From: Eledone cirrhosa
Lineage: Eukaryota
DNA length: 64,000 nt
Assembly: GCA_964016885.1 (NCBI GenBank)
Contig: OZ024742.1
Coordinates: forward strand, 107,508,001 to 107,572,000
Direction: 5' to 3'
Made by a program: the position numbers and the translations under genes. The notes below the pieces were generated by a model. That model did not search any database and was not told the origin of the DNA. It saw only the letters and a list, made by a program, of their open reading frames with translations. Below, piece by piece: positions 24,790 through 59,879 of the stretch (positions are counted from its first letter, which is position 1; the number at the start of each line of letters is the position of its first letter).

Positions 24790-25472
24790 AATGTATATAT
24801 AAGTATATGTATGTGTATATATATATAATGTATATATGTATGTGTGTATATATATATATAATGTATATATGTGTGTATGTATATATAAGTGTATGTGTAT
24901 ATGTTGTGTATATATATATCTATGTATATAAATATGTGTATGTATGTATATGTGTATGTATGTATATGTGTATATATATGTATGTATATGTGTATATATA
25001 TGTATATATATATGTGTATATATATATATATGTGTATATATATATATATGTGTGTATATATATATATGTGTGTATGTATATATATATGTGTGTATGTATA
25101 TATATATGTGTGTATGTATATATATATGTGTATGTATGTATATATATATATGTGTATGTATGTATATATATATGTGTATGTATGTATATATATATGTGTA
25201 TGTATGTATATATATATATATGTATGTATATATATGTGTATGTATGTATGTATATATATATATATATATGTATGTATATATATGTGTATGTATGTATATA
25301 TATATGTGTATGTATGTATGTATATATATATATATATGTATGTATATATATATATATATGTATGTATATATATATATATATGTATGTATGTATATATATA
25401 TGTATGTATGTATATATATGTATGTATGTATATATATATATGTATGTATATATATATATGTATGTATGTATA

Positions 25473-25508
<36 letters not shown>

Positions 25509-25586
25509 TGTGTATGTATGTATGTATGTATGTATGTATATATATATGTATGTATGTATGTATATATATATATGTATGTATGTATG

Positions 25587-25622
<36 letters not shown>

Positions 25623-25930
25623 TGTATATGTGTATATGTATGTATATGTATGTATGTATATGTATGTATATGTATGTATGTATATGTATGTATGTATGTA
25701 TGTATGTATATATATGTATGTATGTATATATATGTATGTATGTATATATATGTATGTATGTATATATATGTATGTATGTATATATATATATGTATGTATA
25801 TATATATATGTATGTATATATATATATGTATGTATATATATATATGTATGTATATATATATATATGTATGTATATATATATATATGTATGTATATATATA
25901 TATATGTATGTATATATATATATATGTATG

Positions 25931-25964
<34 letters not shown>

Positions 25965-26101
25965 TATATGTATGTATGTATGTATATATGTATGTATGTA
26001 TGTATGTATATATATATGTATGTATGTATATATAAGTATGTATGTATGTATGTATATATATGTATGTATGTATGTATGTATATATATGTATGTATGTATG
26101 T

Positions 26102-26135
<34 letters not shown>

Positions 26136-26523
26136 GTATGTATATATATGTATGTATGTATGTATATATATATATGTATGTATGTATATATATATATGTA
26201 TGTATGTATATATATATATGTATGTATGTATGTATATATATATGTATGTATGTATATATATATGTATGTATGTATGTATATATATATATGTATGTATGTA
26301 TGTATATATATATATGTATGTATGTATATATATATATGTATGTATGTATATATATGTATGTATGTATATATATGTATGTATGTATATATATGTATGTATG
26401 TATATATATATGTATGTATGTATATATATATATGTATGTATGTATGTATATATATGTATGTATGTATATGTATGTATGTATGTATGTATATATATATATG
26501 TATATATATATATGTATGTATGT

Positions 26524-26585
<62 letters not shown>

Positions 26586-26922
26586 GTATATATATATATG
26601 TATATATATATATGTATGTATATATATATATGTATGTATATATGTATGTATGTATGTGTGTATATATATATATGTATGTATGTATGTATGTGTGTATATG
26701 TATGTATGTGTGTATATGTATATATGTATGTATGTGTGTATATATATATATATATATATGTGTATATATGTATATAAATGTGTATGTATGTATATGTATA
26801 TAAATGTGTATGTATATAAATGTGTATGTATGTATGTATATATATATGCGTGTATGTATGTATATATATATATGTGTATGTATATATGTGTGTATGTATG
26901 TATATATATATGTATGTGTGTG
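24790..26922. repeat. 2.1 kb (TA)/(TATG) compound microsatellite
   Basis: Directly visible. Confidence 0.97.
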
Positions 26923-27209
26923 TATCATCATCATCGTTTAACGTCCGTGTTCCATGCTTGCATGGGTTTGGACGGAGGTTTTTCCCACTTGAGGCAAGAG
27001 TGGTTATCTTGCTCGCATAGGACTGTCTGGCGGGTTTTCTACAGCTGGATGCCCTTCCTAACATCAACCACATTTACAGTGTGGGGCTGGGAGGTTTTTA
27101 CCGTGTTGCCTACACGGCCACATTACAGCGTGAACTGTATGTATATATATATATATGTATGTGTATGTATATATATATATATGTATGTGTGTGTGTATGT
27201 ATGTGTATG

Positions 27210-27240
<31 letters not shown>

Positions 27241-27291
27241 ATGTATATATATGTATATATAAATAAATTATCGGAGAAAGCTAATAGCGAT

Positions 27292-27335
<44 letters not shown>

Positions 27336-28065
27336 GTATGTATAGTATATTTGGCAATATACCATATGTTTAATTAAAAACATTTAGAAGACCATACACT
27401 ATCAGTTTTAAAGTAGTCACTATGTCACTTACTTCTTTTCGGCAAAAGAAGGGAGAGAAGCTGACAGTCTGTTTTACGTTGGCTGGCGTTCATCAGAGCC
27501 ACGTACTCCTCCTGCTTTCGTTGAAAATTATGGAAGCTGGATTCTTATAGAATTCCAGTAACAACCAGGAGCTGATTATACAGAGCAATTGCTGGTCCTG
27601 CAAAAATTAGGTATTAGGATTGGTACTCTGAAATAGCGATGTTTACATGAATGTATACATCGCTCTATTGAACGCTGGTTGGCGTTCATCAGAGCCACGT
27701 ACTCCCCTGCATGTAAACATCGCTATTTCAGAGCACCAATCGTAATATTTAAAATACCTTTGCTGGACCGGCAATTGCTCTGTATAATCAGCTCCTGATT
27801 ATTTCTGGAATTCTATAAGAATCCAGCTTCTGTAATTTTTGGCGAAAGCAGGGAAGTACGTGGCTCTGATGAACGCCAACCATCGTAAAACAGACTATCA
27901 GCTTCTCTCCCTTCTTTCGCCGAAAAGAAGTAAGTGACATAGTCACTACTTTAAAACTGATAGCATATGGTCTTCTAAATGTTTTTAATTAAACACACGG
28001 TATATTGCCAAATATACTATACATTCATTCATGTATACATCGCTATTTCAGAGCACCAATCCTAA
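27336..28065. mobile_element. Fold-back non-coding element (~320 bp unit) with an HHR-like motif in each arm
   Basis: 27340-27650 is inverted relative to 27710-28025, and the unit restarts at ~28030; motif GGCU-CUGAUGA-ACG..CGU-AAAA-CAG a CU(G/A)-UC^AGCU at 27459-27500 (-) and 27862-27903 (+). Confidence 0.8.
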
Positions 28066-28430
28066 TACATATATATATATATGTGTGTATGTATTACTCT
28101 TTTACTCTTTTACCTGTTTCAGCCATCCGGCTGAGGCCATGCTGGGGCACCGCCCTTGTGCTGGGGCACGTATGTATATATATATATTTCGTTTCTTAAT
28201 TTGTTTAGCAAGATTCTTTATCTGAAAACGTATCTTGAAACCGATATTGTTATACTTTGGGAGGGTCATATTGCCAATAAGAAACACACGCACCAGTAGC
28301 TTTCACTCCAATTTATTATAAATTAAAAACATTTAAAAAAAAAAAAAATTTTCTTAAAAATTTTACTTTTAAAGTTTATAAATTTCCGGTTGGATGGTTG
28401 GTTCCACAACCGGACGGTTGTTCATATATT

Positions 28431-28473
28431 GTCAAAGTTCTTTCGTGACACATTCTGTGACCTCTTCAGTGAC
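28431..28473 (-). ncRNA. Minimal type I hammerhead in element 28188-28660
   Basis: GUCA-CUGAAGA-G-stem II-GAAA-G aa C-UU^UGAC; stem II is imperfect here and perfect in the 31284-31326 copy. Confidence 0.65.
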
Positions 28474-28923
28474 TGGGGATTCTTTTCTTTGTTTTGTGCC
28501 TCTCCTTTGTTCTGTCCTATGCCATCTTGTTTTTGTGTGTGTTGTGTGCTTAGTTTGCGCATGTGTTACATCCAGGTGTCTGTGTGTGTTTTTATTTGTT
28601 TATTTATTTGTTTATTTACATGTTACCAACCAACCGGAAATTTATAAATTAAAATAAAAATTTTTAAGATGATCTTTTTTTTCTTAAACAATGTAAAGAA
28701 TACATATAGGGAAACAAGTATTGTCATTCAGATAATTTTGGTCGTTTGAACTGCTGCTAATTCTAGTAGCAGGACATTGACCTGTCCGCCCTGCCTTTTG
28801 TCTTTACACACGGCACTAGGCAAAATTGTTTCTTTCCTCATTCACTCTCATTCGGGAACAGTTTTGTATGGCGTATGTTTGTGATTTGAACTCGGTAATT
28901 TTATATTCTCCGAGCGAGAAGAA

Positions 28924-29005
28924 CCTTCTGACGAAAGTCCCCTTTTCAATAGAAATCCGCTTGGATTATCTGTTTATTTTGGGATTTGAAACCGCGCGGT
29001 AAAGG
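28924..29005 (+). ncRNA. Type I hammerhead with palindromic stem III
   Basis: CCUU-CUGACGA-AAGUCCC...GGGAUUU-GAAA-CCGCGCGG-UA^AAGG. Confidence 0.85.
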
Positions 29006-29077
29006 CACATATAGTAAGTACACCAAACTTTTTAAAATTGATTTTAAAACTTTTTCTTTATTTGCTAAACCTTGATT

Positions 29078-29246
29078 TTATATATATATATACGTGTATA
29101 TATATATATATATATATATATACGTGTATATATATATGTATATATATATATACGTGTATATATATATGTATATATATATACGTGTATATATATATGTATT
29201 TATATATACATGTATATATATATATATATGTATATATATATACATG

Positions 29247-29281
<35 letters not shown>

Positions 29282-29592
29282 GTATATATATATACATGTA
29301 TATATATATATATATATATATGCATATATATATATATATACATATATATATATGTATATATACATATATATATATGTAAATATATATATGTAAATATATA
29401 TATATATGTATATATATATATGTATATATATATATATGTATATATATATGTATATATATATATGTATATATATATGTATATATATATATGTATATATATA
29501 TATGTATATATATATATATGTATGTATATATATATACATATATATGTATATGTATACATATATATGTATATATATATGTATATATATACATA

Positions 29593-29645
<53 letters not shown>

Positions 29646-29668
29646 GTATATATATGTATATATATATG

Positions 29669-29699
<31 letters not shown>

Positions 29700-29808
29700 G
29701 TATATATATGTATGTATATATGTATATATGTGTATATATGTATATATATATATGTATATATATATATGTATATATATATATATGTATATATATATATGTA
29801 TATATGTA

Positions 29809-29859
<51 letters not shown>

Positions 29860-29920
29860 GTGTATATATGTATATATATATATCTATATATGTATATATA
29901 TATATATATGTGTATATATG

Positions 29921-29952
<32 letters not shown>

Positions 29953-29966
29953 TATGTGTATATATG

Positions 29967-29998
<32 letters not shown>

Positions 29999-30140
29999 TA
30001 TGTGTATGTATGTATATATATATATGTGTATATATATGTATATATATATATGTATATATATATATGTGTATATATATGTATATATATGTATATATATATG
30101 TATATATATATATATGTATATATATATGTACATATATATG

Positions 30141-30178
<38 letters not shown>

Positions 30179-30239
30179 CATATATATACATATATATATA
30201 TACATATATATATACATATATATATACATATATATACAC

Positions 30240-30270
<31 letters not shown>

Positions 30271-30626
30271 CATATATATATATACATATATATATATACA
30301 TATATATACACATATATATATACATATATATATATACATATATATACACATATATATATAATATACATATATACACATATATATACATATATACACATAT
30401 ACACATATATATACATATATACACATATATATATATATACATATATACACACATATATATACATATATACACACATATATATACATACATATATATATAT
30501 ACATATATACACACATATATATAACATATATACACCATATATATATACATACATATATATATACATATATACACACATATATATACATACATATATATAT
30601 ATACATATACACATATTCATATATAC

Positions 30627-30697
<71 letters not shown>

Positions 30698-30702
30698 TAT
30701 AT

Positions 30703-30755
<53 letters not shown>

Positions 30756-31080
30756 TATATATACATATATACATATATATATATACATATATATATGTAT
30801 ATATATATATATGTATATATATATATGTATATTATATATGTATATATGTATATATATATATATGTATATATATATATGTATATATATATATATGTATATA
30901 TATATGTATATATATATATGTATATATGTATATATGTATATGTATATATGTATATATGTATATGTATATATATATATATGTATGTATATATATATGTGTG
31001 TATATATGTATATATATATGTGTGTATATATGTATATATATATATATGTGTATATATATATGTATATATGTATATATATA
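29078..31080. repeat. 2 kb (TA)n-based compound microsatellite with internal polarity switches
   Basis: TG-interrupted to ~30150, CA-interrupted to ~30790, then TG-interrupted again. Confidence 0.95.
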
Positions 31081-31490: not shown

Positions 31491-31561
31491 GTCCCTCATC
31501 AGTGATTTACCAACGGTCATAGGTATTTCATTGCATTAAAAATCATATACCTCACGTTGGC
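31491..31561 (-). ncRNA. Non-circularly permuted hammerhead with kink-turn
   Basis: GCCAACG-UGA-GGUAUA^UGAUUU-uuaaugcaau-GAAAUACC-UAUGAC-CGUUGGU-AAAUCA-CUGAUGA-GGGAC. Confidence 0.7.
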
Positions 31562-31933
31562 GTAATAATAACTAAAATAAGTTATTAGGACAATTAAAAC
31601 GCGTAAAGCGAGTGAGACAAGTAAACAACACAGAGGAAAGCTAACCGAAGATAGGAAAGACACAAGCTACATAGCTATTCTAACAGTATAAGCTGTGTGA
31701 ATATATGAACCACCTGAGAGAACATTAGTCTACGACCTCTTTTATACCATTAACGTGGTTCTGTCTTTGCGCGTAATTGTTTTTCACCGCTTCTATTAAT
31801 GACGTATTATATTCGTTTTTTTCCGTTCTTTGCCAGCGAACGTTTCCACGAACCAAAGTATCGTCTTCCTGTCTTCCTCCGGTTGCAACGTTTTTTGAAA
31901 TATCCACTTCTGCGTTTACAGATTGACTTTGTT

Positions 31934-40611: not shown

Positions 40612-41290
<679 letters not shown>

Positions 41291-47317: not shown

Positions 47318-47530
47318 CTTCGCCTCGCCGAGCTGGTCTTCACCCTTAACTGATTCTCCTTCTCGGGTGAATTTTACCAGAAGGTCACTGGGGTAGCCAT
47401 GGGCACAAGAATGGGCCCCAACTATGCCAACCTTTTCGTTGGCCATGTTGAGGCCCAAATTTTTGCCCAATACACCGGCTCCACGCCCGAACTGTACGGT
47501 CGGTACATCAACGACTGCATCGGAGACACG

Positions 47531-47532
<2 letters not shown>
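47316..47532 (+). mobile_element. Isolated PLE RT fragment embedded in (TA)n
   Basis: Near-identical reverse complement of ~39592-39807. Confidence 0.9.
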
Positions 47533-47620
<88 letters not shown>

Positions 47621-47633
47621 GTATATATATATA

Positions 47634-48232
47634 TCGCGGGGAGAAACAGGACAAAGAAACATGCAAGTGAGTAACCGTGAAAAAATAGGATAAGTAAGTT
47701 ATCGCAAACCTGGTAGACATAAGCCTGGTTGGGTGTATATATATATATCACTTCCGGTTTCCGTGTCTCTCTCTTCTACGATGGAGTCAACATGCTAATA
47801 CCGTCCTCCTGTTAGCACACCCAACCAGGCTTATGTCTACCAGGTTTGCGATAACTTACTTATCCTATTTTTTCACGGTTACTCACTTGCATGTTTCTTT
47901 GTCCTGTTTCTCCCCGCGATGGGATCTGTTCACCTGTTTTTTTCTCTTTTTTCTCTTTCTTCCTCTCTCCTCACCCCATTCCCCCTTTGTTCTTCCTCTT
48001 TTCCTTCTTTTTCCTTCCCTTTTCTCTTCTTTTCCTCCTGGCCTTTTGATTAAGAAAAGGCCTCGGGCACACCGCGGATCGCTACAGATGTCCTGTAAAT
48101 AAGCGCCGAAACATCTGGATCGCGGATTACAGCTGACGAAGGATTCTTTCTTCTTTTCTCCTCTTGTTCCGTCCAAACCACCATCCTAAACCTTGTTTTT
48201 AGTAACCATACAGCTCCTTTCGTTTCTTATGA
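47634..48232 (+). mobile_element. pLTR-like element with a ~100 bp inverted 5' segment and a permuted HHR
   Basis: 47634-47736 is the reverse complement of 47817-47920; microsatellite flanks. Confidence 0.7.
48072..48144 (+). ncRNA. Non-circularly permuted hammerhead, second family
   Basis: CCGCGGAUC-gcua-CAGAUGUC^CUGUAA-auaagcgcc-GAAACAUCUG-GAUCGCGG-a-UUACAG-CUGACGA-AGGAU. Confidence 0.7.
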
Positions 48233-48234
48233 TT

Positions 48235-58826: not shown

Positions 58827-59879
58827 TACATACATACATACATACACACACATACACACACATACATACTAAAATTGTAGGGACCTCGAACACGGAAATA
58901 GCTTCAAAACTGCCAAAGAGTCGAGTTAAACAAAATGAACGGAAGAGATAGATAGATAGATAGATAGAGAGAAAAAGCGAATGGAAATGATAGACCGCAT
59001 AATGTTGACATGGAGAAGTAAGAATGTGATTGTAGAGGAGAAAGTAAAGTTGAATAGCATAAAATACCGAACTAGAGTGTCGGGACCTCTTCAGCTTCCT
59101 TGAAGCTACATGATTTCGCGCGATCAAGAAGAATCACGTATTTAAGGCTAGCCCGCACAACAGAATCAAAATTTCTGTAGGTAGACAAGACAAAACAAAA
59201 CAAGAGAGTAGTAGTAACTGGGCTGCGTCAGGCAGGAAAGATGCATTCTCGTATTCTGACGGAAGAAGCAGCAGCAGGTGAGATGAGAGCGGAAGTAATA
59301 GCACTCGTGGCAGTTTTGGGGGAAGATGGGCGACAGAAAAAGAAATAATGAGTTTCAGAGTTATCTGTCCTTGGCATGTATACACACAAACACACACACA
59401 CATATAAACATGTGTGTCCGTAAATACACATACACATGTGTATGCATGCAAACATACATGTAAAGAAACATACGATCGCATGCACACGCAATGTGAATAT
59501 ACAATGAATCTAAATATGTTGAGTTTTCAGTGCTTAGAAAGGAAGAAAGAAAGAATTTCATTATTGAAATAACCAAGCCTCATACGAATTCTCACACAAA
59601 TATTCACAAGAATATTTTTACACATATAATTATATATACTGTCGTTGCATCTCTTTGTTTGAACCTCTTGTTCATTCGTCCCACATATTTAATTTTTTTT
59701 CGTGTTTAACTTAACTACTTATTGCTACTGTAACACTACGCACTCTTTCTTTGATTTTTGTTTCGACAATATATTTATTTATTTGAGTGTTTAAATGTTT
59801 TCACTTTCTTACTAATCATGCTTATGGAAGTAAATCTAATCTACATGCTACCACCATAAATGAAACTTACGGGTCAGTC

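Follow-up and report, generated by a model that had tools for sequence, protein, structure and literature searches.

The window analysed here, a whole stretch of 64,000 nt from the genome of Eledone cirrhosa, contains a 5′-truncated copy of a non-coding repeat, designated family A, next to an inverted fragment of the same unit, and in this copy the components of a hammerhead ribozyme occur in an altered order. Two other copies with the same order lie on the minus strand, one in a sister family (family B) and the other, decayed, in another family (Table 1). All three were recovered with a descriptor specifying stems I and III of at least 5 bp each and the block order S-G-C, where block S consists of a stem III strand, UH and a stem I strand, block G of GAAA and a stem III strand, and block C of a stem I strand and CUGAnGA. 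It yielded 3 matches in the window (48085-48139 on the plus strand, ~31496-31552 and 59088-59136 on the minus strand) versus 0 in 150 dinucleotide-resampled windows. The decayed copy can form 6 pairs in stem I, 8 in stem III and 6 in stem II with an upstream strand.

Rfam hammerhead models gave no match to the window at E<=10, and the Rfam matches among those listed were microsatellite-driven miRNA only. The folding energy of the single strand is unremarkable (z of -1.06 and -0.15), as expected, since the folding program cannot model pseudoknots. Elsewhere in the window, a large microsatellite array gives rise to large inverted repeats and spurious Rfam miRNA matches, and a separate near-perfect inverted repeat is embedded between microsatellites.

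Table 1. Coordinates of repeat copies, motif parts and neighbouring features in the window.
Feature	Position	Strand	Remarks
TA/TG microsatellite array	24800-31000		~6 kb, internal strand switch
Family B copy, same architecture	31491-31591	-	tandem unit ~530 nt; 588 and 630 in other subfamilies
Near-perfect inverted repeat	40630-40737		~108 nt, between microsatellites
RT fragment	47330-47536	+	another family
Inverted partial copy of family A unit, 5′ side	47633-47736	-	100% over 104 nt; Penelope-type inversion
Family A copy, 5′-truncated	47765-48234	+	non-coding unit ~750-820 nt, partial tandems; CA/TA microsatellite at end
P0 5′ strand, UCCU	48033-48036	+	partner 48140-48143; alternative register 48036-48039
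8-bp hairpin	48040-48062	+	between P0 and stem II 5′ strand
Stem II 5′ strand, GGCAC	48066-48070	+	detached from CUGAnGA; one A-C mismatch here
Helix I 5′ strand	48072-48080	+	stem I/II interaction helix of Eckert et al.
4-nt bulge, helix I to stem III	48081-48084	+	family B: k-turn-type motif at same place
Block S	48085-48098	+	stem III 5′ strand, GUC, stem I 5′ strand; predicted cut after 48092
Stem III 5′ strand, CAGAUGU	48085-48091	+	pairs with 48111-48117, 7/7
Cleavage triplet, GUC	48090-48092	+
Stem I 5′ strand, CUGUAA	48093-48098	+	pairs with 48127-48132, 6/6
4-nt linker and block G	48099-48117	+	stem II 3′ strand, GAAA, stem III 3′ strand
Stem II 3′ strand, GCGCC	48103-48107	+	part of block G; then GAAA 48108-48111
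Stem III 3′ strand, ACAUCUG	48111-48117	+
Helix I 3′ strand	48118-48125	+	pairs with 48072-48080
Block C	48127-48139	+	stem I 3′ strand and CUGACGA
Stem I 3′ strand, UUACAG	48127-48132	+
Core, CUGACGA	48133-48139	+
P0 3′ strand, AGGA	48140-48143	+	its GG: alternative pairing with CC 48106-48107
Third copy, decayed, another family, same order	59080-59160	-	core CUGAAGA; resembles L165, L194

Strand order and relation to known hammerheads

In the window copy CUGAnGA, GAAA and UH are all in place, flanked in register by stems I and III, which also show covariation, and the core blocks follow each other as S-G-C, not as the CGS, GSC or SCG of types I/II/III. The linker from stem I to GAAA measures 9 nt, and AGGAU directly follows CUGACGA; the corresponding features of the family B window copy are a 10-nt linker and GGGAC. 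The original prediction had placed both stems, the GUC, CUGACGA, the 9-nt linker and AGGAU exactly where they occur, and its permuted order is borne out at 48085-48139; the other family to which it compared this motif is most likely represented by the minus-strand copy at 31496-31552. It was too narrow in extent (48072-48144), as the element begins near 48033. The pairings CCGC/GCGG and GAUC/GAUC next to stem III, which it had described as an extension of that stem, do exist, but they correspond to helix I of Eckert et al.

Hammerhead types SGC and CSG were defined and validated by Eckert et al. 2023 (PMC10085705; this and the other published sources are used here in part) in terms of blocks C, G and S. 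Both cleave in vitro, and SGC requires helix I, in which the strand after the stem II 5′ strand is joined to the strand before the stem I 3′ strand. The authors took CUGAnGA to be inseparable from its stem II strand, and the parts of their paper considered here report neither type from the genomes of known organisms, one GCS candidate apart, and SGC only from metatranscriptomes. The present motif resembles type SGC, exemplified by HRIMA-1, in its S-G-C order, in the short linker between stems I and II, in a helix I that joins the other sides of these stems, and in the very short link between stem III and helix I (PMC10085705). In type SGC, however, the stem II strand follows CUGAnGA and the molecule ends between helix I and S, whereas here the stem II 5′ and helix I strands lie upstream of S, the ends belong to an additional helix (P0), there is a hairpin as well, and a bulge or kink-turn joins helix I to stem III. 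An intact block C of the SGC kind failed when tested here, with only the first one or two after-core stem II pairs formable. Type CSG, which comprises two unique soil-metagenome sequences, has the same circle of strands, a helix I and, on the strand that serves here, a short connection between helix I and stem III, but it is opened between G and helix I, keeps A9 contiguous with stem II, and contains neither P0 nor the hairpin (PMC10085705).

As sequence and comparison show, the strands follow one another as P0 - hairpin - stem II 5′ strand - helix I - S - G - helix I - C - P0. If the common fold is drawn as a ring, C > II′ > Ia > S > G > Ib > C, type SGC opens it between Ia and S and type CSG between G and Ib, while the family A and B elements would open it at or just after the A9/10.1 junction, where P0 and the hairpin were added. 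As judged from sequence, the motif is best read as a hammerhead of the SGC/CSG class opened at A9/10.1, with two extra helices, residing in repeats mobilised by Penelope-like elements (PLEs). The S-G-C order was already known; novelty lies in where the fold is opened, in the added helices and in the elements that host the motif. The openly accessible literature yielded no description of a split block C, of the P0/hairpin junction, or of non-circular hammerheads in animal genomes or PLEs; the consulted part of PMC13725137 (2026) mentions unnamed hammerhead variants with additional helices, and that of its source, PMC10162972, gives length variants only.

Insertion at this very junction has a precedent in the minimal type I PLE hammerhead, in which an extra base between positions 9 and 10.1 is common (PMC4209133), so that the junction tolerates insertion and may accommodate two helices. 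The PLE context is a further similarity, while the minimal type I motif differs in its C-G-S order, palindromic stem III and dimeric nature (PMC4209133). It is also present in this genome, in a Neptune-like family.

Fold and covariation in families A and B

We consider it probable that the repeat RNA of the window copy would act as a self-cleaving hammerhead of rearranged order, in both fold and function, with the upstream strand likely completing stem II. The modelled fold was evaluated on 67 family B copies (alignment A2; 7 of the 77 rows were dropped since simple repeats had replaced their 5′ part, along with 3 non-B rows) and on 44 family A copies (alignment A3; 7 of 51 rows, truncated, upstream-deleted or near-duplicate, were dropped). 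In family B, 92.8% of the cells are paired, in counts that tally related copies rather than independent events, and 19 of 32 pairs show two-sided change; none of 500 shuffles scored as high, and slid registers reached 25-44%. Four or more helices covary around the core in this family, including all 7 pairs of helix I, each with two-sided change, and P0 (G-C/A-U/U-A in 55/6/2 copies). In family A, 89.8% of the cells are paired, and covariation is weak: 8 of 38 pairs show two-sided change, a number reached by 116/500 shuffles (17/500 for cells). Here pairing amounts to 84.7% in P0 (U-A/C-G 28/3 and U-A/A-U 41/1), 93.6% in the hairpin between P0 and the stem II strand, 81.7% in helix I, and 95.3% in stem I/block C (A-U/U-A 36/4).

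A kink-turn consists of a 3-nt bulge followed by tandem G-A and A-G pairs. Both GA steps are found between stem III and helix I in 56/67 family B copies, and they are absent in family A, as the original prediction had it. On an alternative view, the same helices would be active only in a head-to-tail dimer or in trans: the S/G loop of one unit would bind two parts of a second unit, its stem II 5′ strand and its block C, and no sharp turn from stem III into helix I would be needed. Both strands indeed link stem III to helix I by short linkers (0-1 nt and 3-7 nt), the linked positions are far apart in the crystal structure (PMC10085705), family A has units in tandem without the kink-turn, and minimal PLE hammerheads are thought to act as dimers (PMC4209133); covariation, moreover, cannot separate cis from trans. 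Nevertheless, the GA steps are kept exactly at this junction in the large majority of family B copies, and single-unit SGC and CSG constructs, with a 0-nt and a ~2-nt link, respectively, were cleaved during transcription (PMC10085705). An obligatory dimeric or trans mode therefore appears unlikely.

As to stem II, in family B the upstream strand, ~20 nt 5′ of the cut, pairs with the strand before GAAA in 93.3% of cells (C-G/U-A 43/19, U-A/A-U 63/1), versus 40.0% for the after-core strand in its direct version; the number of covarying stem II pairs (2) was reached by 194/500 shuffles. A distal stem II built from the after-core strand (CAUU/AAUG, CUU/AAG) was rejected, as its 58.6% pairing lies below shuffles. 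The base before GAAA is an exception, pairing with the base after the core in 57/67 copies (U-G 26, U-A 22, A-U 9) versus 24/67 with the upstream base. Judging from these pairings, the first stem II pair of family B (10.1-11.1) is formed by the base right after CUGAnGA, and the remainder by the upstream strand. In family A, where the stem II 5′ strand reads GGCGC in most copies, the upstream strand is paired in 88.9% of cells versus 54.5% for the after-core strand, with two-sided change in one cell only. Since covariation in this family is weak and a GG/CC pairing is formable, its stem II assignment draws on complementarity and on the shared architecture: with the upstream strand, stem II abuts G12 in both families and covaries in B only.

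The GG/CC pairing was the stem II put forward in the original prediction (48141-48142 with 48106-48107), and it does hold as an alternative register, with the two pairs present in 42/44 and 35/44 family A copies. An after-core stem II is therefore formable in its first pairs, but its overall pairing in either family falls well behind, and the assignment was probably wrong. The further suggestion that GGAU pairs downstream is not upheld, as its partner lies upstream, at 48033-48036. One could nonetheless envision family A as a plain type SGC hammerhead with a 2-bp stem II, GG after the core and CC before GAAA, including the usual PLE extra A after the core, in which case the upstream GGCGC would represent an off-state or a switch. 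Such a stem II would fit with the Neptune-like element of this genome, which uses CUGAAGA-A-GGGC...GCCC-GAAAC, with the additional base that PLE hammerheads typically have between 9 and 10.1 (PMC4209133), and with the after-core base in the 10.1-11.1 pair of family B. It does not extend, however, since after-core positions 3-4 pair in only 2/44 copies each, whereas the upstream strand provides 5 pairs and runs straight into helix I like the stem II strand of Eckert et al. (PMC10085705); and in those Naiad records whose 6-bp upstream helix is perfect, C11.1 has no possible partner in the after-core base when read by eye (PMC8557442). We regard this alternative as quite improbable.

Across both alignments C3, U4, G5, A6, G8, A9, GAAA and U16.1 are invariant, in part owing to row selection; position 7 varies between U and C, and position 17 is A, C or U wherever tallied. 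The cleavage triplet of family A is GUC in 40/44 copies and GUU in 4/44. A conserved RNA structure that retains hammerhead parts without catalysis, such as an RT-binding or initiation element, could account for triplets in family B that are not GUC (AUA 47, AUC 18 and GUA 2 of 67, under a search pattern that admitted only A or G at the first position), for the poor in vitro cleavage of minimal PLE hammerheads (PMC4209133), for the absence of a 5′-end excess at the cut in family B (one exact and one ambiguous end among 41 internal starts), and for the fact that most genomic arrays run through the predicted cut site (26/30 in family A, 28/30 in family B). Against it stand the invariant core and the helices covarying around it, and read-through arrays are expected from circular or uncut templates, with which they fit; a non-catalytic role therefore seems very improbable. 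Finally, that CUGACGA belongs to an ordinary type I hammerhead completed downstream, which the original prediction had named as the competing possibility, or that the motif arose by chance, has next to no probability despite the many ordinary-order C...G motifs in the genome, because CGAAA follows within ~130 nt after the core in 0/44 family A copies, Rfam hammerhead models find nothing, and the resampled windows contain no match.

Repeat units and their mobilisation

Families A and B consist of non-coding tandem units with one hammerhead motif each, and same-strand spacings of family A copies (753, 783, 795 and 819 nt) reveal partial tandems. Together with an inverted 5′-truncated copy, a fixed 3′ end and a (TA)n target, these are marks of the Penelope type. 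The 3′ ends of family B lie at +116 to +125 in 30/30 loci, within a TA or CA repeat, and most of those of family A at ~+100 or at +143 to +170. In family A, about 8 of the 5′ ends lie between +3 and +11 relative to the predicted cut, versus 1-5 per other 12-nt bin (the bin holds 9, one of them an alignment artefact, with 43 internal starts among 119 copies), an excess that is suggestive only, since one query began at +1 and thereby biased the comparison.

With regard to a mobilising partner, no PLE-protein match was detected inside family A or B units, and no same-orientation PLE reading frame was present in the 8 kb upstream of any of 13 copies. A Naiad ORF, with its N-terminal GIY-YIG, CxC motif and C-terminal RT, was likewise not found in the units or beside these 13 copies with probes derived from non-Naiad PLE proteins, which decayed Naiad frames could escape. 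The RT fragment near the family A copy belongs to another family (7182 first-look candidates, with long copies at L073-L082), which is probably Neptune-like as judged by its C-terminal endonuclease and cysteine linker, the clade label following PMC8557442. It was rejected as the parent, as its long-ORF relatives (L062-L082) have no 3′ sequence in common with family A, and the four that were inspected by pattern all terminate in a minimal type I hammerhead of the ordinary kind. The 3′ region of the long Neptune-like copies spans ~1.4 kb and has this minimal hammerhead at its end, where an additional A follows the core.

Non-LTR retrozymes, which have been proposed as non-autonomous partners of PLEs, are likewise built of non-coding tandem units that hold a single hammerhead (PMC7229834; bioRxiv 10.64898/2026.07.22.740005). 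Retrozymes, however, whose RNA is expressed as linear and circular monomers, carry a type I hammerhead in units of ~170-450 nt (Cervera and de la Pena 2020; Li et al.), whereas the units described here measure ~530-820 nt and their motif is non-circularly permuted and not type I. In the latter, P0 and the hairpin would form a four-way junction with stem II, and the bulge of family A or the kink-turn of family B would bend the rod and allow closure in cis. Assuming hammerhead chemistry, the RNA would be cut after the GUC ending at 48092, once per unit, so that tandem read-through transcripts would be reduced to unit length. Ligation of unit-length RNAs by RtcB has been shown for type I retrozymes (PMC7229834), and by analogy the units might be partly circularised by a host RtcB-type ligase. 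An RT/endonuclease of the Penelope-like group, with the Naiad clade as its most likely source, would then copy them in trans into (TA)n, starting at a fixed position 100-170 nt beyond the cut (PMC11167929; bioRxiv 10.64898/2026.07.22.740005), and copying of this kind could yield the 5′-truncated, inverted and more-than-unit copies.

Distribution in the genome and in Naiad retrotransposons

The genome assembly comprises 3.0 Gb and is rich in (TA)n. We searched it with patterns that fixed nothing but core bases and two pairs of stem III, using the backwards pattern as a control. One S-G-C pattern produced 191 matches versus 27 for the control, and a second one 21,620 versus 733, a total that includes overlapping matches, those listed being mostly family B relatives; with RGGAY after the core, 193 matches were found versus 0. 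Family A alone accounts for 1476 first-look candidates, 40 of which were scored. Of the 191 matches, the first 90 were examined for stem I, which the pattern leaves free: 38 have at least 4 of 5 positions paired, as compared with 13.2 (maximum 23) when partners were shuffled 2000 times and 3-17 when the register was slid, bearing in mind that copies within one family are related and not independent. These 90 matches fall into several unrelated families with differing stem I sequences. The enrichment over backwards controls agrees with the original prediction of a real structural class extending across unrelated families.

The upstream stem II strand was also assessed without regard to its position, with one natural copy from each of 13 families, and the outcome was marginal (4.23 versus 3.69 +/- 0.30, reached by 90/1844 swaps and 183/3000 shuffles). 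Old families C, G, D, J, F, H and I displayed no per-copy preference for the upstream strand. A hairpin just 5′ of this strand is predicted in most, not all, of 11 hand-picked copies. One family (L138, L155, L164, L168) fits the S-G-C pattern and has a good upstream helix, without a clear stem I. A search for type CSG gave 3821 matches versus 583 for the control, but those listed look like ordinary C...G motifs with a long stem II, and the search says little about CSG. They seem to include several families with a branched stem II of 45-55 nt, some in tandem; C1:14214059-14214120 and C1:30666821-30668000 are examples of ordinary-order C...G motifs.

Outside this genome, three weak S-G-C matches occurred in 120 loci from viral contigs, none of them convincing. 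In metagenomes, of which 2 of 64 parts were scanned with a pattern omitting block C, 2 of 120 loci (L249 and L350) possess stem I and CUGAUGA, and the other 118 do not complete the motif. L249 also has a 9-bp P0 and the hairpin, and both loci are close in sequence to a coral Naiad end.

Naiads lack canonical hammerheads according to the portion of Craig et al. 2021 (PMC8557442) consulted, in which some are marked ‘HHR_core’ and eight ‘HHR_half_core’. The following readings were made by eye, from passages of its consensus file S5, and give no proportion of the 54 consensuses. The ends of Naiad_Amil, Aacu, Obim and Ovul, names which were assigned from following headers, show a perfect 6-bp upstream stem II ending before GAAA, as do three records placed by position (Bfor, Morbakka, and one near part 19), and Naiad Anas has the same helix with one mismatch. 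A hairpin lies directly 5′ of the upstream strand in all these ends, and P0 is clear except in the two octopus records; hosts with the same fold thus include a ctenophore, a coral, a box jellyfish and an octopus. The record preceding Naiad_Hcon and three more, in the nematode range, could be read as type CSG with helix I. Families A and B resemble Naiads in that the ends of the latter contain either this fold or CSG and in their (TA)n targets, partial tandems and inverted 5′-truncated copies (PMC8557442); they differ in encoding no protein and in having no linked Naiad ORF among the copies searched, and the consulted text on Naiads gives no fold. The link to Naiads, for which these supplementary sequences and an 8-nt hairpin loop common to family B and Naiad_Obim/Ovul are the basis, is accordingly suggested rather than firm. 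A Naiad_Obim-like pattern found 10 matches at 6 places in the present genome, none of which is the published sequence.

We are inclined to view these elements as an unrecognised class, in which the SGC/CSG circle is opened inside stem II, which would be standard in many Naiads from ctenophores to molluscs, and which in this genome would drive non-autonomous circular-RNA retroelements numbering more than 20,000; SGC, CSG and the present opening would represent three cuts of one ancestral circular fold, and the soil CSG orphans may be Naiad fragments. Such a form would have been missed earlier because the CSG descriptor of Eckert et al. and the core descriptor of Craig both require contiguity of CUGAnGA and stem II. 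If this is true, non-circularly permuted hammerheads would no longer be confined to anonymous metatranscriptomes but would also occur, in very many copies, in animal genomes, and CUGAnGA could no longer be taken as inseparable from its stem II strand. It would also provide an answer, in the form of a predicted ribozyme, to the puzzle of Naiads that have no canonical hammerheads yet possess ‘half cores’, which bears on whether PLE transposition needs ribozymes, and the many natural variants with and without a kink-turn would make the unexplained SGC geometry testable.

The CSG motifs of the nematode-range Naiad ends (PMC8557442 S5, parts 13-16) look perfect, and two of these ends share a short helix motif with the soil-metagenome sequence CSG-1 of Eckert et al., a hint that the orphan ribozymes may derive from Naiads. 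In records of the spider and ostracod range (S5, parts 17-19) G precedes C in differing layouts, and one of them may be S-G-C, containing a long insertion and having its stem II strand 3′ of the core.
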